From Bacilli bacterium (lineage in GTDB: Bacteria > Bacillota_I > Bacilli_A > RFN20 > CAG-826): a DNA stretch of 57,757 nucleotides. Under the pieces are notes generated by a model. It made no database searches. It was not told where the DNA came from and worked only from the letters and a program-made list of their open reading frames with translations. A program made the translations under genes and the position numbers. Positions 30,707 through 38,668 of the stretch are shown here, one piece after another; within the stretch, counting starts at the first letter, position 1; each line of letters opens with the position of its first letter. The DNA lies in the NCBI GenBank assembly GCA_017534425.1, contig JAFXWB010000052.1, positions 1 to 57,757 on the forward strand, given 5' to 3'.

Positions 30707-31384
30707 ATGAATAAGGTTAGCGAATTTTTTAAGAAGTTATTCTCCAAAGAAAACTTAATGAAGTTCTTTAGAACTTTCATTTGGTTAATGGTGTTAATGT
30801 TTATCATTGATATTGTTACTAAATGGGTTGTTTTCAATCACTTTGGTGTAGATGCAATGATTGATGGTAGAAGAAGTGATTCAGGGGCAATTCCTGTAAT
30901 TAATAACTTCTGTTACATTGGTGGATCAATCAATAACGGTGCAGCCTTCTCGTTCCTTGCCGGAAATAGAGTTTTATTACTTTTGATTTCCCTTGTAATG
31001 ACTGGTCTATTTATTGCTTACTACGTTTCTCAATATAAGAAACTTGATAATACTTACAAAGTTGGTTTAGCACTTATGATTTCTGGTGCTTTTGGCAACT
31101 TAATTGATAGAGCCTTCTATTGGCCAAAAACAACAGGATTTGATGGTGTTATTGACTGGATTATATTTAAATTTGGAAGTTGGGAATTTGCAATGTTTAA
31201 TATCGCAGATTCTTGCTTAGTTATTGGTATTATTGTGGTCATCATTAAGATGGTTGTTGATGAAATCAAAGCCGCTAAAGAAAAGGCAAAAAGAGGCGAA
31301 TTTAAGTATTCACCAGAACAACTCGAAAAGATGAACAAAGAACAAGAAAATAATCACGAAGATGAAGGAAATAAAGGCGAATAA
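30707..31384 (+). CDS. lspA: Lipoprotein signal peptidase II
   Basis: NNGAAFS, GAFGNLIDR, VIDWI, FNIAD. Confidence 0.95.
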   Translation: MNKVSEFFKKLFSKENLMKFFRTFIWLMVLMFIIDIVTKWVVFNHFGVDAMIDGRRSDSGAIPVINNFCYIGGSINNGAAFSFLAGNRVLLLLISLVMTGLFIAYYVSQYKKLDNTYKVGLALMISGAFGNLIDRAFYWPKTTGFDGVIDWIIFKFGSWEFAMFNIADSCLVIGIIVVIIKMVVDEIKAAKEKAKRGEFKYSPEQLEKMNKEQENNHEDEGNKGE

Positions 31385-32264
31385 AGAACTTGCTGGATTA
31401 CGTTTAGACAAAGCATTGTCATTAATACTTGAGGATGTATCTAGAAGTAAGGTGCAAAGTCACTTAGAAAATGGCTTAATTTTAGTGAACCAAAAGAAGG
31501 AAAAACCTTCATATAAATTGTCTGATGGAGATGTCATTACAATTGAAGATTTCCCAAGTGAAGTTTCTGACTTAAATCCTGAAGATATTCCTCTTGATAT
31601 TGTCTATGAAGATGACGATTTAATCGTTGTAAATAAACCTAAAGGTCTAGTTGTTCATCCTGGTGCCGGAAATGAAGAGCATACTTTAGCAAATGCGCTA
31701 AAATTTCATAGCGATAATTTATCCACTTTAAACGGAGAATTTAGACCAGGAATTGTTCATAGAATCGATAAGGATACAGCAGGACTTTTAATAGTTGCAA
31801 AAAACGATGCAGCACATGCATTTTTATCTAATCAACTAGCAGATCATACATTAGGTAGAAAATACTATGCTTTGGTTCTTGGAGTAATACCTGAAAATGA
31901 AGGAAAAATCATCGCTCCAATAGGAAGAGACCAGAAATTCCGTCAAAAGATGGCGGTGGACCTTCTTAGAGGAAAAGAGGCAGAAACTAACTTCAAAGTT
32001 ATCGAAAGATTTAAAGAGTCTACTTTAGTAGAGTGCGCTCTAAAAACAGGTAGAACTCATCAAATTAGAGTTCATATGGCTTACATTGGTTATCCAGTAA
32101 TTGGCGATCCAATTTATGGAAAAGGTAACCGCAAGATGTATGATGAAGGACAATTATTATTTGCTCATGAGATTCATTTCATACATCCTAAAACAAAAAA
32201 GGAGATGACTTTCTCAGTCGATCTCCCAGATTATTTTAAAGAAATATTACAGAAGCTTCGTTAA
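31362..32264 (+). CDS. rluD: RluA/RluD-family pseudouridine synthase
   Basis: S4 domain, VNKPKGLVVHP, GIVHRIDKDT, TGRTHQIRVH. Confidence 0.9.
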   Translation: MKEIKANKELAGLRLDKALSLILEDVSRSKVQSHLENGLILVNQKKEKPSYKLSDGDVITIEDFPSEVSDLNPEDIPLDIVYEDDDLIVVNKPKGLVVHPGAGNEEHTLANALKFHSDNLSTLNGEFRPGIVHRIDKDTAGLLIVAKNDAAHAFLSNQLADHTLGRKYYALVLGVIPENEGKIIAPIGRDQKFRQKMAVDLLRGKEAETNFKVIERFKESTLVECALKTGRTHQIRVHMAYIGYPVIGDPIYGKGNRKMYDEGQLLFAHEIHFIHPKTKKEMTFSVDLPDYFKEILQKLR

Positions 32265-33170
32265 TTCCTTATAATTGGCGAAGTTTTTCTTTACGATTTT
32301 ATCTAATTCATCAAAACCATATTTTTTAACGAATTTCTTCGCGAATTCTGTAACTTTTCCGCTTGCTCCATATGGAATGTCTAAGCCATATTTCTTACCA
32401 ATAAGGTCCATATGTTGAATAAATGAATAACGAGCAATAATGCTTCCAACCGCTACTGATGGGAAATAAGATTCACCTTTAGTTTTAAATGTAACACCAA
32501 AGATAATTTCTTTTTCTCCATTAACATATTTGTAGTATTTGTCTTCTGATACAAATTGATCAATTAGAACATTTTTAACTGAGGTATGTTTTGATTTGAG
32601 ATTGAATAAAACGCGGTTATGCATTTTTGCTTTCATCTCATTCATGTTCATATCTTGATCTACAAGTTCATTATATTTTTCATTATTCAATGAAAGTTGA
32701 GAATATTCGAACTCTTTAATTAAGATTTTTCCAAGTTTTCTAATTTGATCATCATTTAAACGCTTTGAATCATCAATGCCTAATTCTTTTAGTCTCTTGA
32801 TATCACTTTTTTTAACATAAGCAGCGCATACACAGATTGGTCCAAAGAAGTCACCGGTGCCAACTTCGTCTGACCCAATTTGGCTATCTAAGACTTCCCA
32901 ACAGGCTTTAGTAGGTGCTTTGTTTTCTTTTGGTTCTGTTGGTGCTGCATCTTTATCCCAGCGTTTTGCTTCGCTTAGTGCAGTTTCTCCAATAAAGAAG
33001 ACTTTGAATGAATCTTCCTTCTTGGATGAATAAACGGTAATTGTTAAGTCTTTGTTTTGCCCAAAAAAGAGGATGTATTGACCCTTATTTTCTTTTTGGA
33101 TTGAACGATAAAAATTAATGATTTTATCTTTCGTTTCTTGATTAACTTGAATAGTTACTCTTTCAATCAT
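32247..33170 (-). CDS. rnhC: Ribonuclease HIII
   Basis: N-terminal TBP-like domain, IGSDEVGTGDFFGP, DDSKRL, LIDQF, VAVGSIIAR. Confidence 0.93.
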   Translation of the reverse strand: MIERVTIQVNQETKDKIINFYRSIQKENKGQYILFFGQNKDLTITVYSSKKEDSFKVFFIGETALSEAKRWDKDAAPTEPKENKAPTKACWEVLDSQIGSDEVGTGDFFGPICVCAAYVKKSDIKRLKELGIDDSKRLNDDQIRKLGKILIKEFEYSQLSLNNEKYNELVDQDMNMNEMKAKMHNRVLFNLKSKHTSVKNVLIDQFVSEDKYYKYVNGEKEIIFGVTFKTKGESYFPSVAVGSIIARYSFIQHMDLIGKKYGLDIPYGASGKVTEFAKKFVKKYGFDELDKIVKKNFANYKELTKLL

Positions 33171-33241
33171 AGTTTAATTGTAGCATACGTAAAATAAATA
33201 ATAAATTAAAAATGTAAATTTTCTTTTAGAAAATTATTTTC

Positions 33242-34447
33242 TTAATCATCTTTAAAGTTGTTATGCTTTTTAACCTCCTTCTGTACAACATTGTTTTTAA
33301 GATTTTTGATTGAGTTTATTAAAAACGTATCTGTAATTTTTCCGCTTGAAGATAATTTTTCGCCTACTTGTTCTAATGATGAACCAAATTTGTAGCAAAC
33401 ATCATCCACTAAAACGTAGCGATCATGTAACTCATTAGTTTTGATAACGGTGTAATTATCGCATGTTTCAATTTTCTTATTCTTAATGTTTGTAATGATG
33501 GTTTTCTTAACTTTAATACCTAATAAAACATCATCGTATTTATGCCCAATATAATTATCAACGAGTATTATTTCTTCTTTTGCAGTTTCTAAAAAACGTT
33601 TAATTTCAATAAAACCCCGTAATTGATCTCCTGGGAAATAGGTTATTTCATGTCGTGATTCTAACTGTAATTGTTTTACATCCCTCTGAAGTTCAAGAAT
33701 TTCATTTCTGCAAATGATACAGTTTGGTCCTTTTGATTCATATAAATCTTTTAAATATTGTTTGAAAACTTCACTAACCCATCTTCTGAGAAATATTGCT
33801 TTTGTAGTCTTAACTCTATACCCTACAGCAAGTATCATATCGAGGTTATAAAAAGTGACTAAATATTGCTTGCCATCAGGAGCAGTATACAAGGAATCCT
33901 TGTGAACTGAATCATCTAATTCTTTGTCTTCTAAAATGTTATTTATGTGTAAACTCACATTCTGCTGGGTGGTATCAAAAATGTCAGCAATTTGAGCTTG
34001 ATTTGTCCAAATAGTTTCTTCTTTAAGCGAGAGGTTTAATTCATATTTATTGATTCCGTCATCATATATGATGATTTTATCTGATAGATGATTAAAAGGT
34101 GCAGCTTTTGTTTGTTCTTCTACAAGTGCTTTTATTAACATACCACGAGATGATTTAATCCTTTTTCCGACCTCAAGAATTACATCTAAATTGAAGTGTT
34201 TTACAGGCTTATCTGAAAAAGGAATTTGTGAATAACGTGCATTGCAATGTGCATTTTGTGCATATTGCTTTTCTGTATTTTCTTCCTTAAAAATTTGATT
34301 AATTTGTCGCGAAATACTGCTCCGATTTCTTTCAAATAATTCTGCAATTTGGTTTAACGATAACCAGACTGTTTCTTCATCCTCAAAATAAGGAATTTCC
34401 ATTTCAAATTCACCATCTTTAAATTTAAGTATTTTGGGATTTTTCAT
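33242..34447 (-). CDS. Tandem RhuM-family DNA-binding domains plus CxxC/coiled-coil and a C-terminal PLD-like domain
   Basis: ETVWLSLNQIAELF...FNLDVILEVGKRIKS and ETIWTNQAQIADIF...YNLDMILAVGYRVKT..A...RRW. C-terminal AKEEIILVDNY...HDRYVLVD..Y.FGSS. AAGGAGG RBS. Confidence 0.8.
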   Translation of the reverse strand: MKNPKILKFKDGEFEMEIPYFEDEETVWLSLNQIAELFERNRSSISRQINQIFKEENTEKQYAQNAHCNARYSQIPFSDKPVKHFNLDVILEVGKRIKSSRGMLIKALVEEQTKAAPFNHLSDKIIIYDDGINKYELNLSLKEETIWTNQAQIADIFDTTQQNVSLHINNILEDKELDDSVHKDSLYTAPDGKQYLVTFYNLDMILAVGYRVKTTKAIFLRRWVSEVFKQYLKDLYESKGPNCIICRNEILELQRDVKQLQLESRHEITYFPGDQLRGFIEIKRFLETAKEEIILVDNYIGHKYDDVLLGIKVKKTIITNIKNKKIETCDNYTVIKTNELHDRYVLVDDVCYKFGSSLEQVGEKLSSSGKITDTFLINSIKNLKNNVVQKEVKKHNNFKDD

Positions 34448-34506
34448 AATGACCTCCTTACTATATGTATCTAGGTAAAAAGGACATTTTTGCGAAATTA
34501 TTTTTT

Positions 34507-34524
34507 TGATTTACTAGTAAATCA
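34507..34524. promoter_or_regulatory. Perfect 18-bp palindrome in the divergent rhuM-like/mutS2 promoter region
   Basis: TGATTTACTAGTAAATCA; related imperfect site ATCTACTAGTTAGAT at 34570-34584. Confidence 0.5.
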
Positions 34525-34607
34525 CATTTTTATAGTTCGCGAAATCTAGTGTTTTTAAGTATGCATTTCATCTACTAGTTAGATATAAGTGTGTTATCAT
34601 AATTGAT

Positions 34608-36920
34608 ATGCTTGATATATACGGTACATTAGAGATTGAGCGAGTTCTCCAGGAAATCGCTTCATTTTCTAAAACTGAAATTGGTATTGCAAAAATTAAA
34701 GCTTTAAGAATGCTTACTGAAGAAGAAGCAAGCAAAGCTCTTAAAGTTTTATCACAGATGTCTGACTTCACGATGAAGTATGGTGCAGTCCCAATTTTAA
34801 TCTCACATGATTTAACTGAATTTATCGACACGGCCTTGAAGGGTGGTGTACTTACAGCCCTAGATTTAGATCACATTGCTAGTGATGTTTTACTCGCGAA
34901 TAAACTTCATAATTTTTTCAAGAAAGTTGATAAGGTTTCATCTTATGAGCTCTTTGAGCTCGTCAATAGACTTTATGATATCGGAGAGCTTGAAATCAAG
35001 ATTCATAAAATAATCGCTCCAAACTTAAATATTAAAGATGATGCTTCAAGTAAACTTAAAGAAATTAGGCAATCCATTCATAAAAAAGAAATGGATGTCC
35101 GACAAATAGTGTCTCGCCTTATTTCTAGTTATCATGACTATCTTGTTGAAGACACAATGACAATTAGAAATGATCATTATGTTTTACCTGTCGCTACTGT
35201 ACATAAGAGTAAAGTTCCTGGTGTAATTCACGATATTTCAGATTCAGGTCAAACAACATTTATCGAACCACAAGCACTCGTTCAACTAGCAAACCAAATC
35301 TGTGTATTAAGAATTGAAGAAAAAGAAGAAATATATCGTTTACTTAAACTCCTTACTGAAGAAGTAGTAAAATATTCCTCTCAAATTGCATCTAATAACT
35401 ATGTTATTGGAGAAATAGATTTTATAGGTGCTAAAGCTGAATATTTAGCTGTCCACAACTGTAAAGTCCCAGAATTTAGCAAAGAAAGACAAATAGATTT
35501 TAAAGGTGCTCGTCACCCATTAATTCCAGAAGATAAGGTTATCGCAAATGACTTCAAGTTTAATGTTAACCAAAGACTTATTGTTATCTCTGGACCAAAT
35601 GCTGGTGGTAAAACTGTTGCACTTAAAACATTAGGTTTATTAGTGATGATGGCGCAGATGGGTATTGCTATTCCTACAAAAGAACCAGCAATTTTGTCAT
35701 TTTTCCCAAGGATTTATGCTGATATTGGTGACAATCAGTCACTTTCTGATAATTTATCAACATTTGCAGCGCATGTTTCAAATCTTTCAACAATCACACA
35801 CTTTGTGACTTCTAAAGATTTAGTTTTACTTGATGAGCTTGGAACAGGCACTTCTCCAAATGAAGGTGAAGCTTTAGCTTTAGCAGTTTCTGATTTCTTA
35901 CTAAACAAGAAGTGTTTTGCGTTCATCTCATCTCACTTTGAAAGAATGAAAGAATATGCCTATCGTAGAGAAGGTGTTACAAACGCGATGATGGTGTTTG
36001 ATGAAAAACACTTACTTCCAACATACATTTTAAAGATTGGCTTCCCAGGTAGATCGTATGGTTTAGAGATGGCTAATAGATATCATCTCGATAAAGAAGT
36101 TGTGGATCTCGCTAAAAAGAATTTAGATGAAACTGGAAACAAATCAGTTTCAGACGTAATCGATAAACTTAATGAAGTTCTTCATTATAATGAAGAGATG
36201 AATAAGAAACTCAAAGAAAAAGAACGCTTGTTAGACGGAAAAACAAGAGACTTAGAACATCAAAACGAAGTACTTAGAGGTAAGAAAGATAATCTACTTA
36301 GTGATGTTGAACAAACAAGAACCAAGATGATTGAAGATGCTAGAAGACAAATTAATGACATCCTCAAAATTTTGAATAAACCAGACGTCAAACCTCACGA
36401 GTTAATTGAGGCCAAAACTAAACTCAAACAACTTGAAGAATCACAAGACGAATTCATTGGTGATGAAGAAATACATTTAGGGGATTACGCTGAGATTGCT
36501 GGACTAGGTATTGTTGGTAAAGTAACCAAGATAAACAAAGAAAAAGTTGAACTACTTTCTACTGACGGAATGAGTGTTAAATCCACTCTAAAGAAACTAA
36601 AAAAAGTCGCGAAAATCCCGGAAAAACAAAGAAAAAATACAGGAAATCCTGATAATTTTGTATTTTCAAAAACAAGCGTAAAACTTGAATTAAACATCAT
36701 TGGTAAACATGTTGATGAAGCAATGGCGGAAGTCGAAAAATATATTGATGATTGCCGTGTTAAAAACTTCAAACAAGTCCGTATTATTCATGGCATGGGG
36801 ACAGGCGCTTTACGAGATGCAGTTCATGACTATTTAGATAGATGTGACTTCATTGATTCTTATCGATATGGTGATTCACATGAAGGTGCAACTGGAGCAA
36901 CGGTGGTAATTTTCAAATGA
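34608..36920 (+). CDS. mutS2: MutS2 endonuclease / ribosome-collision ATPase with Smr domain
   Basis: ISGPNAGGKT, ADIGDNQS...LSTF, LLDELGTGT, IIHGMGTGAL..., GATVV. Confidence 0.96.
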   Translation: MLDIYGTLEIERVLQEIASFSKTEIGIAKIKALRMLTEEEASKALKVLSQMSDFTMKYGAVPILISHDLTEFIDTALKGGVLTALDLDHIASDVLLANKLHNFFKKVDKVSSYELFELVNRLYDIGELEIKIHKIIAPNLNIKDDASSKLKEIRQSIHKKEMDVRQIVSRLISSYHDYLVEDTMTIRNDHYVLPVATVHKSKVPGVIHDISDSGQTTFIEPQALVQLANQICVLRIEEKEEIYRLLKLLTEEVVKYSSQIASNNYVIGEIDFIGAKAEYLAVHNCKVPEFSKERQIDFKGARHPLIPEDKVIANDFKFNVNQRLIVISGPNAGGKTVALKTLGLLVMMAQMGIAIPTKEPAILSFFPRIYADIGDNQSLSDNLSTFAAHVSNLSTITHFVTSKDLVLLDELGTGTSPNEGEALALAVSDFLLNKKCFAFISSHFERMKEYAYRREGVTNAMMVFDEKHLLPTYILKIGFPGRSYGLEMANRYHLDKEVVDLAKKNLDETGNKSVSDVIDKLNEVLHYNEEMNKKLKEKERLLDGKTRDLEHQNEVLRGKKDNLLSDVEQTRTKMIEDARRQINDILKILNKPDVKPHELIEAKTKLKQLEESQDEFIGDEEIHLGDYAEIAGLGIVGKVTKINKEKVELLSTDGMSVKSTLKKLKKVAKIPEKQRKNTGNPDNFVFSKTSVKLELNIIGKHVDEAMAEVEKYIDDCRVKNFKQVRIIHGMGTGALRDAVHDYLDRCDFIDSYRYGDSHEGATGATVVIFK

Positions 36921-38668
36921 CAGAAAAAGTAAAAGTTGCAATTCCATTATTACCGCGTCGTCCTGGTTGTTATTTAATGAAGGATAAGGATGACAAGGTT
37001 ATTTATATTGGCAAAGCCAAGAATCTATATAACCGTGTCAGCCAATACTTTTTAAGACCACAAGTAGGTAAAGTCGCAGCAATGGTCTCGCACGTTGACC
37101 ATTTTGAAACAATCATAACTAAAACTGATAAAGAATCATTCATTTTAGAGATGAATCTTGTTCATAAATACTATCCTCGTTACAACATTTTGTTGAAGGA
37201 CGGTAAACATTACCCTTATATCGCACTAAAAAAGAAAAATGATCCATATTTAAGGATTGCTCGAAATGATTTTGATAAGAATTTCTACTATTTTGGTCCA
37301 TTTCCTACTTCCAGCTACGCATATTCAGTAATTGATTTACTTAATAAGCTTTTCCCAACAAGAAAATGCGCCAATATCAAAACTGAACCATGTCTTTATT
37401 ATCATATGGGCATGTGTCTCGCACCTTGTATTAATAAGGTTAGTGAAGAAGAAAATGACAAACTCTTCAATAACATCAAAACATTCTTAGAGGGAAATAA
37501 CCCTGAAATTGTTAAAGATTTAAAGGAAAAAATGGTGGAAGCCTCTAATAATCTTGAGTTCGAAAAAGCAAATGATTTAAAAAAGACTCTAGACGCTATT
37601 GATCATGTCTTATCTAAACAAGGCGTTGAAAATAAAGATCATATTGATAGAGATGTATTCGCATATACGACAAGAAACGGATATTTGTCTCTCGCAATAC
37701 TCACTTATCGTAAAGGACTATTGCTCGGAAAAGAATCATATATTGTTGAAGAATTTGGAGATAATGTTGAGCAAATTTCTGACCTTATTTTCCAATATTA
37801 TGAGACCCATTCTTTACCGAAAGAAATACTCATGAATATTGATGGAGTTAGTGAAGTTTTAAGCGAACTTTTACCTACTAAATTCGTATCAGTTACCAAA
37901 GGTAAATTAATCGAATTAATTGAGATGGCAAACCTCAATGCGGTGCAGTCATTAGACTCTCATTTTATGTCTGCTAGACTCACTGATGATAACTCCTCCT
38001 TACTTGAAGATTTAGGTAACAGATTAGGCATCAAAACTCCTTATCGAATTGAACTATTTGATAACTCTCACATTCAAGGTGATGCCCCTGTTGGAGCGAT
38101 GGTTGTTTTCATCAATGGTGAACCACTAAAAAAGATGTATCGAAAGTTCAACATTGAAGGTAAAGAAAAACGTGATGATTACGCCTCAATGAAGGAAGTA
38201 ATGAGAAGAAGATATTCGCGTTTAATTGAAGAAAATGCTGATTTTCCGGACTTAATTTTAACTGATGGTGGTTTAGGACAGATTCACGCTGGTAGTGAAG
38301 TCATTGAAGAACTTGGATTATCAATTCCAGTTTTTGGCTTATTCAAGAACGATAAACACCAGACAAAAGGACTCATGGACAAGGGTGGAAATGTCATTTC
38401 ACTTGATGACAATAAATCGTTATTTTTCTTACTTGTAAGAATGCAAGACGAAGTTCATCGTTTTGCAATTACTTTTCATCATCAAAAAAGAAGCAAAAAT
38501 TTCACCAAATCAATCCTCGATGATATTGAAGGCTTGGGTCCAAAAAGGAAACAACTAATTTTGGACCACTACACTGATATAGATTCACTCAAAAATGCGA
38601 CTGTTGAAGAGTTATCTCAATACCTTCCAAAAGAAGTCGCTATCAAGGTAAAAGAAAAGATAAATTAA
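36917..38668 (+). CDS. uvrC: Excinuclease ABC subunit C
   Basis: PGCYLM..VIYIGKAKNL, YFGPF, RIELFDNSH, DGGLGQ, QDEVHRFAI, HhH. Confidence 0.97.
   Translation: MTEKVKVAIPLLPRRPGCYLMKDKDDKVIYIGKAKNLYNRVSQYFLRPQVGKVAAMVSHVDHFETIITKTDKESFILEMNLVHKYYPRYNILLKDGKHYPYIALKKKNDPYLRIARNDFDKNFYYFGPFPTSSYAYSVIDLLNKLFPTRKCANIKTEPCLYYHMGMCLAPCINKVSEEENDKLFNNIKTFLEGNNPEIVKDLKEKMVEASNNLEFEKANDLKKTLDAIDHVLSKQGVENKDHIDRDVFAYTTRNGYLSLAILTYRKGLLLGKESYIVEEFGDNVEQISDLIFQYYETHSLPKEILMNIDGVSEVLSELLPTKFVSVTKGKLIELIEMANLNAVQSLDSHFMSARLTDDNSSLLEDLGNRLGIKTPYRIELFDNSHIQGDAPVGAMVVFINGEPLKKMYRKFNIEGKEKRDDYASMKEVMRRRYSRLIEENADFPDLILTDGGLGQIHAGSEVIEELGLSIPVFGLFKNDKHQTKGLMDKGGNVISLDDNKSLFFLLVRMQDEVHRFAITFHHQKRSKNFTKSILDDIEGLGPKRKQLILDHYTDIDSLKNATVEELSQYLPKEVAIKVKEKIN

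Follow-up and report, generated by a model that had tools for sequence, protein, structure and literature searches.

Why should two copies of a protein domain, lying one behind the other in a single gene and encoding different wing peptides, each carry a DNA palindrome at nearly the same place among their codons? The question is raised by an open reading frame (ORF) of 401 codons in a 57,757-nucleotide (nt) stretch of a Bacilli bacterium genome (contig JAFXWB010000052.1, the whole of which we refer to as the window), which encodes two tandem RhuM-N-type winged-helix domains followed by a C-terminal domain. In this report we focused on these two palindromes and on their counterparts in homologous genes of bacteria, archaea and viral contigs. 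Our answer, to which we assign a probability of roughly 60%, is a prediction made from sequence comparison: each palindrome would be a dyad operator lying in the codons of the wing and read, by a protein dimer, through the recognition helix of the very domain that these codons encode.

Two palindromes in one gene

Both palindromes had been pointed out in a sequence-only reading of the window, and both are present as it described them. Palindrome 2, in the second domain, spans 33883-33909 (CAGTATACAAGGA-A-TCCTTGTGAACTG), pairs 11 of 13 arm positions around a centre at 33896 and encodes V-HKDSLY-T. Palindrome 1, in the first domain, spans 34244-34268 (GCAATGTGCA-TTTTG-TGCATATTGC), pairs 9 of 10 arm positions around a centre at 34256 and encodes Q-YAQNAH-C. 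The accompanying claim that the two occupy the same codon-registered site stands insofar as both centres fall on a third codon base, but positional equivalence holds only to within one codon, the offset between the copies being 120 codons for the palindrome centres, 119 for the helix motifs that precede them and 115 for the FNLD/YNLD motifs that follow. Palindrome 2 is mismatched only at distances 8 and 9 from its centre, which are the least constrained positions family-wide (74% and 64% Watson-Crick).

Taken singly, each palindrome is ordinary because the window holds 75 of equal quality. This number was obtained with a scan that scores +1 per match and -1.5 per mismatch, allows a loop of up to 6 and retains scores of at least 7.5, and it compares with a mean of 31.8 in 12 dinucleotide shuffles. 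A post hoc test with 1000 synonymous shuffles of the gene placed palindromes in both variable segments in 0.1% of cases, and two palindromes spaced by the domain offset in 0.2%. When contigs from four metagenome runs were compared with the gene, none of the differences listed fell inside either palindrome, where about two would be expected from strains that are ~3.6% diverged.

Conservation and covariation among RhuM-N homologues

Our homologue set comprised 80 loci from named genomes and 30 from the same order, yielding 121 matching ORFs (118 distinct), and homologous ORFs were aligned to a profile built from the alignment A1. At the profile position of codon 184, a palindrome scoring at least 6 is present within 4 nt in 107 of 110 homologous ORFs from many phyla, and one scoring at least 7.5 in 89, compared with mean rates of 3.1% and 1.2%, respectively, at other profile positions. 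In 108 of the 110 palindrome-bearing ORFs, the gene in the window included, the palindrome is centred on a third codon base, and in 104 the centre falls on an identical profile position. The extra N-terminal domain behaves similarly: in the segment that separates the helix from the YNLD motif, 18 of the 24 two-domain ORFs (again including the gene in the window) have a palindrome scoring at least 7.5, and codon position 3 holds the centre in 20 of the 24. Excess over codon-shuffled controls, on the absence of which the sequence-only reading would have given up its claim, is very clear in the homologues, since peptide-preserving shuffles retain on average 13.2 palindromes in 110 ORFs, and 25 at most, against the 89 observed, and the mean site score is 4.37 in the shuffles vs 9.70 in the homologues.

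The pairing itself is strict and varied. Among 103 distinct 33-mers, the Watson-Crick fraction at distances 1-7 from the centre is 0.59, 0.60, 0.96, 0.99, 1.00, 0.97 and 0.97, and at distances 8-13 it is 0.74, 0.64, 0.89, 0.99, 1.00 and 0.50, with pairing beyond distance 13 at background (~0.3). Several pair types occur at every constrained position, for example A:T 43, G:C 41, T:A 16 and C:G 3 at distance 5, or A:T 89, C:G 10 and G:C 4 at distance 12. In a separate count over 101 rows, 88.4% of positions were paired, compared with 58.5% in column shuffles (0 of 500 reached the observed value) and 26-41% with slid partners. The covariation score in these rows was 0.793, vs 0.249 in column shuffles (0 of 500 reached 0.793) and 0.07-0.12 with a slid partner, and both sides change at 11 of 11 pairs.

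Could such symmetry be a by-product of protein constraint, in which cross-strand residues of the wing β-hairpin have complementary codons, or could it be due to chance? The peptide does give some symmetry, as 12% of peptide-preserving shuffles reach 7.5 compared with a background of 1-2%, and palindromes of equal quality are, as seen above, common in the window. Against this stand the gap between observed and shuffled counts and the behaviour of synonymous sites: at distances 3, 6 and 12, where third-codon bases face each other, complementarity is 96-100% and several pair types occur, and under the identical wing peptides HKDFLY, VKESLT and VKEYLT synonymous changes are found on both arms, from C:G to T:A at distance 6. 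One and the same core, GTGCAAAAAATGCAC, is read as C-A-K-N-A-H in two loci (L105 and L109) and as V-Q-K-M-H in a third (L009). The by-product and chance explanations, which would also have to accommodate three families using three reading frames (see below), are already contradicted by the synonymous-site and frame data, and we give them next to no credence. The earlier claim of selection at the level of the nucleic acid is strongly borne out by these third-base pairs, by covariation at all 11 pairs and by the loss of the palindrome when only the peptide is preserved. The element is a dyad-symmetric site within the coding sequence of its putative regulator that is kept in relatives, as is expected of an intragenic operator, and its constrained block at distances 3-7 on each side of a single centre base, with fixed spacing, has the geometry of an operator for a helix-turn-helix (HTH) dimer.

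Sister families read the palindrome in other frames

ORF6N domains carry a palindrome in about the same place of the domain, before the GG/DG turn. It scores at least 7.5 in 104 of 111 ORFs, its centre is on codon position 1 in 106 of 110 and on an identical profile position in 105 of 106, and it is found in 39 of 41 distinct viral ORF6N ORFs. In a subgroup of Bro-N, 14 of 23 loci score at least 8, with the centre on codon position 2 in 11 of 16. Only three usable loci were available for Phage_pRha, two of them with an even-centred palindrome, a sample too small for any statement. The suggestion of the sequence-only reading that symmetric segments may occur in related families is thus correct for ORF6N and for part only of Bro-N, and the codon registration on which it laid stress turns out not to be fundamental, the centre being on codon position 3 in RhuM-N, 1 in ORF6N and 2 in the Bro-N subgroup. 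Because each family reads the palindrome in a different codon phase, it is a feature of the DNA and not of the peptide. We put the odds slightly better than even that a whole superfamily of winged-helix domains, consisting of RhuM-N, ORF6N and part of Bro-N, carries its predicted binding site in the DNA by which the domain is encoded.

Pairing without wobble

Covarying pairs within a coding region, one set per domain copy, are a classic signature of RNA structure, and an mRNA hairpin might act in ribosome pausing during folding of the wing, in mRNA stability or in binding of the protein to its own message. The mismatches tell otherwise. Among 824 constrained cells in RhuM-N, there are 2 G:T, 10 A:C and 11 other mismatches, and at distances 2-13 in ORF6N there are 16 G:T vs 31 A:C, so that the G:U tolerance of structured RNA is absent. 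The centre runs A then T and never T then A, with 61 A:T vs 0 one base out in RhuM-N, and A:T in 96 of 100 and T:A in none two bases out in ORF6N, a polarity that comes without strand bias. In addition, coupling to helix residues of the type that reads a major groove (see below) would be unfit for A-form RNA, and an Rfam scan of nine loci at E up to 1 found no relevant family, the only matches being to tRNA and, below threshold, to a microRNA elsewhere in two loci. The palindrome has covarying base pairs superimposed on codons in common with Rfam-type hairpins in coding regions, but differs from them in its lack of G:U tolerance and of strand polarity, in its coupling to HTH residues and in the missing Rfam match. 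An mRNA hairpin is in our view quite improbable.

The palindrome core is coupled to the recognition helix

The point that is new here is that the inner bases of the palindrome, judging from the alignments, covary specifically with at least three positions of the recognition helix. In RhuM-N, the triplet at distances 3-5 from the centre shows its top normalised mutual information at states 163, 160, 166, 162 and 159, just before the invariant His167. At equal divergence elsewhere in the domain, of seven helix positions, 11-36% differ between sequences with the same core (inner five bases) and 65-85% between sequences whose cores are at least two bases apart; three control column sets, one of them between helix and palindrome, are nearly flat. 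The coupling is replicated, in another reading frame, by ORF6N, where mutual information is 0.89 at state 37, 0.86 at state 33 and 0.57 at state 30, with all others at 0.40 or less, and where same-core pairs differ at 13-19% of the coupled positions vs 65-78% for different-core pairs. Four ORF6N control sets are flat or nearly so, including a flat one that is interleaved in the same helix (states 27, 29, 39 and 40), a rise being confined to the downstream set and there to the two closest bins (0.57/0.66 and 0.30/0.52).

The ORF6N pairings can be read off as a code. At state 37, Arg goes with C:G in 64 sequences and Asn with A:T in 33, with 3 exceptions (n=100); at state 33, Glu goes with CG (43), Gln with CA (29), Arg with GC or GT (20) and Lys with TC (2); and at state 30, Arg goes with G (44) and Ala or Val with A (24). 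Textbook residue-base preferences are Arg for G, Asn or Gln for A and Glu for C, and the pairings, which appear chemically sensible, agree with them. In a viral hold-out of 36 sequences whose 33-mers were absent from the first set, the code is kept in 36 of 36 at state 37 and in 34 of 36 at state 33. The genome to which the window belongs has a second family member, an ORF6N-type ORF of 141 amino acids (aa) on contig C31 (8159-8401; locus L125), which carries a palindrome of its own, TTGAAATCACATTTTGTGATGTCAA, and whose helix residues Q-Q-R agree with the CAC class of the ORF6N code.

The two domains of the 401-aa protein each appear to have a helix type that matches the type of their own palindrome. 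In RhuM-N, the class with an AAG inner triplet has a (T/S)-N-(L/M/F) helix in 29 of 31 sequences, and domain 2 fits this rule by combining the helix TTQQNVSLH with the inner half-site ACAAG. Domain 1 combines the helix RNRSSISRQ, of the type S-(S/V)-I-S-R, with the inner half-site ATGCA, and domain-2 relatives with an xTGCA core carry S-V-(I/V)-(S/T)-(K/R) helices such as QSVISRH, KSVISRH and RSVVTKH. The core triplet of domain 1 was correctly named by a nearest-helix predictor. Across two-domain genes, prediction of domain-1 cores from domain-2 helices was correct in 8 of 17 cases vs 0.21 by chance, a result that is not independent of common descent.

The covarying residues thus lie in the HTH, about 20 codons upstream of the palindrome, and not only in the peptide that the palindrome encodes. 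Of the two hypotheses offered by the sequence-only reading, that of a self-encoded operator covarying with its recognition residues gains support from helix-core covariation in two families, from the flat controls and from the viral hold-out.

A proposed self-read operator within the wing codons

How might a winged-helix domain use a site in its own codons? In the mechanism that we propose, the operator would be a dyad-symmetric site of double-stranded DNA in the wing segment of a RhuM-N/ORF6N-type domain, presumably bound by a symmetric dimer. The two helices would read base pairs 3-7 from the centre on each side, with half-site centres 10 bp or one helical turn apart, the AnTn centre would be an uncontacted spacer, and positions 10-12(13) would provide an outer contact. 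We arrive at this classical HTH dimer geometry because the coupled states (30/33/37 and 160/163/166) fit one helix face and the half-sites are one turn apart. Helix and operator would co-evolve, so that each paralogue, and each domain of the 401-aa protein, would have its own matched pair. The most likely role would be promoter-independent negative autoregulation, in which RNA polymerase would be stopped ~190 and ~550 nt into the gene by the protein bound there. Such autoregulation would make sense for a defence module that consists of one gene, carries a harmful effector domain and inserts into foreign operons, and control independent of a promoter would be useful to RhuM-like genes inside restriction-modification operons, where one report (PMC3710099) often places them. 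As the intragenic site is single, a roadblock is favoured over looping to a promoter site, and in the two-domain gene a bridge between the two sites, which are separated by 360 bp, is conceivable. That bacteria, archaea and viral contigs retain the element, one for each domain copy, is explained most economically by a partner that the gene itself encodes.

Several points weigh against this proposal. Dimerisation is an assumption; physical binding, its stoichiometry and its regulatory consequence are matters that we infer, and the role purely so. Within 1.5 kb of the gene, a second copy of the palindrome was found in 2 of 60 loci, both of them rearrangement products, and the genome to which the window belongs holds no second good site, its matches with one mismatch lying inside unrelated long ORFs apart from one solitary remnant; no regulon was found. 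When the coupled columns are excluded from the tree, the DNA and the protein trait each require at least 12-22 changes, but independent pairs on supported branches number only 3-4. In these pairs the protein trait goes along with the DNA in 2.9 of 3 and 3.9 of 4 and never against it (median p 0.25 and 0.125), with controls following in 0.1-0.7, and with 3-4 pairs this tree-aware sign test is under-powered. The core bases of ORF6N also fix wing residues 61 and 63, and intramolecular contacts between helix and wing might give rise to the same coupling. In RhuM-N, little of the evidence is purely synonymous, namely three cases at distance 6. At distance 3, a contrast between Lys codons, with Tyr166 present in 5 of 7 sequences with AAA and in 0 of 31 with AAG, is partly confounded, as four of the five also have Ile at the partner codon and the two unchanged Lys-x-Phe cases are one clade. 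Finally, a location of the coupled positions on one face of the recognition helix is suggested only by their spacing of 3-4 residues and by sub-threshold HTH matches.

Strict Watson-Crick pairing and helix-core covariation would equally fit the stem of a DNA hairpin or cruciform, extruded during replication, transfer or transcription, and either read by one copy of the domain as a monomer or used in recombination or rearrangement. Rearrangement joints at the palindrome in two loci (L064 and L016), eight palindromes among decayed ORF6N copies in a third (L116) and several short PADLOC profiles for PDC-S05 (82-93 aa) that end at residues 181-196, that is at the palindrome, fit such a hairpin-prone site. 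Yet the half-site spacing is invariant and equal to one helical turn, although a loop could take whole-codon changes, and a loop has no need of the constant A-then-T centre. Cruciform extrusion in cells generally calls for arms longer than the 12-15 bp seen here, and identity between sequence blocks across the palindrome (Pearson 0.31 vs 0.37-0.38 within sides) reveals no break, in a test that is weak. We consider an extruded hairpin unlikely.

A further possibility is that intrastrand template switching, or gene conversion between the arms, maintains a perfect but functionless palindrome. Such processes would yield exact complements without wobble, and perfect solitary palindromes do persist in the decayed copies of L116. 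To account for a palindrome that is present in 94-97% of genes across bacteria, archaea and viral contigs and in three frames, correction would have to outrun mutation everywhere; moreover, neither the position-specific coupling to the helix nor the relaxed positions at 8-9 from the centre would be explained, and the remnants in L116 are partial duplicates of recent origin, with 87-95% identity over the pieces from gene copies (D1 and D4-D6). We place very little weight on this explanation. Hairpin-templated switching had also been put forward in the sequence-only reading, as the second of its hypotheses, to explain how the specificity segment diversifies, and for this we found no support. The sole concerted change of two arms was seen between two Gemella genomes (L055 and L059), in which a patch of ~60 nt (profile states 175-200) is replaced around an identical centre of 15 nt between flanks that are 83-86% identical. 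Across this patch the two genes differ in wing class, VV..TT.K.GK in one and TV..TVQ.EG in the other, which looks like recombination between classes and not like a hairpin-templated change.

Comparison with known systems and implications

Operators that lie within genes or are auxiliary to a main site are known, such as lac O2 in lacZ, gal OI in galE, and the PurR sites in purB and in the coding region of purR. These are likewise dyad repressor sites inside codons, and the purR site is in the gene of its own binder and acts downstream of the promoter. However, they are single cases, each in one lineage and beside promoter-proximal sites, whereas the site described here is within the codons of the DNA-binding domain, occurs almost without exception in the members of two or more Pfam families, from bacteria and archaea to viral contigs, changes in sequence with the helix predicted to read it, and is without a promoter-proximal partner in the loci searched (copies in 2 of 60). 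The operators of the lambda, 434 and P22 repressors are alike in having half-sites one turn apart, an uncontacted A/T-rich centre and reading by one face of a helix, and the paralogues here diverge in specificity much as phage immunity types do. Phage repressor operators are intergenic and multiple, unlike the one site per domain copy found here inside the codons of the domain itself. Because the site lies in these codons, a change of operator alters or constrains the wing peptide. In lambda O with ori-lambda and in phiX174 gene A with its origin, a protein also acts on a site in its own gene, and gene and site travel together. These sites serve as origins of replication, equipped with iterons or a nick site, in contrast to a single dyad of 25-31 bp that covaries with a helix and has nothing suggesting replication. 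In the literature on RhuM, ORF6N, Bro-N and PDC-S05 (supplementary files were outside the search), we found no description of the palindrome or of a DNA target.

What would follow if the proposal is true? Intragenic operators as such are known, and the novelty would be an operator in the codons of its own reader domain, present throughout a superfamily and co-evolving with its reader. Every gene would be a natural matched pair of reading helix and operator, making up a self-documenting code of protein-DNA recognition in which thousands of cognate pairs, such as Arg37 with C:G and Asn37 with A:T, could be read from sequence alone. Databases would then hold a natural set of helix-operator pairs on which amino-acid-to-base rules might be tested and from which orthogonal repressor-operator pairs might be mined. 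The 401-aa gene would contribute two orthogonal pairs 360 bp apart, permitting a repression loop inside one coding sequence. The proposal would also account for a DNA feature that is very strongly conserved in widespread genes of the phage-defence and phage antirepressor type and has apparently not been described. For mobile single genes it would amount to a new way of bringing along promoter-independent autoregulation, and it is a candidate mechanism for the control of dose by single-gene modules that insert into foreign operons, for example those of restriction-modification systems, without a promoter of their own. Amino-acid variation in the wing would be set in part by a constraint on DNA, which matters when selection or specificity is inferred from the wing peptide.

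The gene, its family and its surroundings

The 401-aa protein belongs with the candidate anti-phage genes of the PDC-S05, Virulence_RhuM (PF13310) and ORF6N (PF10543) types, but has two N-terminal domains. Pfam PF13310 matches it with 62.1 bits (cut-off 33.7; E 6.5e-17) in two stretches, the best of which covers profile positions 2-57 of 252 only and leaves the C-terminal region of RhuM unmatched, so that the protein appears to have the N-terminal domain of RhuM in common with this family and nothing further. The PADLOC profile of PDC-S05, PDLC04879, is matched over its full length (E 1.1e-64; residues 123-371 on profile positions 5-273 of 285), and relative to it domain 1 appears to be an addition. 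The C-terminal domain thus matches PDLC04879 and not the remainder of the Pfam RhuM profile. PF10543 did not match the protein among families listed at E up to 1, the C-terminal 165 residues matched no Pfam family at E up to 1, and a sequence search of the PDB found no relative at E up to 1. The internal repeat is visible in the motif pairs ETVW 25/ETIW 144, INQIF 49/INNIL 168 and FNLD 85/YNLD 200, and weak HTH matches, below threshold, cover residues 27-53 in domain 1 and 149-174 in domain 2. More than 4000 proteins match the 401-aa protein at E 1e-5 or better, many with the same two-domain build of ~400 aa. Feature coordinates are collected in Table 1.

Table 1. Features of the 401-aa gene and its two palindromes, in window coordinates
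Feature	Position	Strand	Remarks
401-aa ORF	33242..34447	minus	Two tandem RhuM-N-type winged-helix domains, then C-terminal domain; PADLOC candidate defence family PDC-S05
Domain 1, extra N-terminal winged-helix copy, residues 1-118	34094..34447	minus	Internal repeat; 24 two-domain homologues including this gene
Recognition helix start of domain 1 (putative), RNRSSISRQ, residues 40-48	34304..34330	minus	Placed by 119-codon offset to domain 2
Palindrome 1, proposed operator of domain 1	34244..34268		Centre is third base of codon 64
Domain 2, residues 121-235, copy common to all single-domain relatives	33743..34087	minus	Alignment A1; PADLOC profiles begin at ~residue 122
Recognition helix start of domain 2 (putative), TTQQNVSLH, residues 159-167	33947..33973	minus	Sub-threshold HTH match and mutual-information peak at states 159-166
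Palindrome 2, proposed operator of domain 2	33883..33909		Centre is third base of codon 184
C-terminal part, residues 236-401, Cys-containing helical linker and domain	33245..33742	minus	Invariant H341, R343, D348, Y352, S357 and G362 (alignment A1)

The C-terminal domain (33245-33610) has an invariant H-x-R-(x)4-D ... G-S-S pattern, which may resemble the phospholipase-D/HKD nuclease motif with Arg replacing Lys. The same domain also comes after ORF6N domains in two loci (L116 and L129). According to a preprint (10.1101/2024.09.26.614923), another gene representing PDC-S05 reduced plating of T7 and T5 ~1000-fold and of T4 ~10-fold in E. coli B. In the window, the gene is outside any restriction-modification operon and stands alone (30707-38668) amid apparent housekeeping genes, namely putative lspA, rluD, RNase HIII, mutS2 and uvrC, as identified by eye from their translations.

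Rearrangements and remnants at the palindrome

Some loci carry additional palindromes of the family type. In L116 (240-1700; genome G496), an ORF6N-only ORF of 96 aa and several decayed partial copies lie upstream of an intact ORF6N gene with the same type of C-terminal domain, and together they hold eight family-type palindromes with different inner triplets, most of them perfect; a piece of 50 nt around the palindrome of the main gene is repeated 1246 nt upstream with 92% identity. In a Bacteroidia gene (L016, 1663-1750), the palindromic wing segment occurs twice in frame, 45 nt apart (PVVANFAITQKLEENPVVAIFATTAADGK), and the first copy has a tail belonging to the other wing class, as would be seen at a recombination joint. 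In L064 (1360-1420), the remnant of a second rhuM-type gene starts directly at its palindrome (AACTGTCGCAAAATTTGCGACAGTT), with a stop codon before it, 298 nt upstream of the palindrome of the intact gene. The genome to which the window belongs has a solitary family-type palindrome, GTGCAAAATTTGCAC, on contig C59 (6426-6444; L173), in a short open frame of 82 aa with the local peptide SAKFAHC, which is probably a gene remnant. Finally, in two metagenome runs (X5 and X8), several otherwise dissimilar contigs match only a stretch of 36 nt around palindrome 2 (33881-33916), and one of these contigs has the stretch twice, 548 nt apart, with one match exact.

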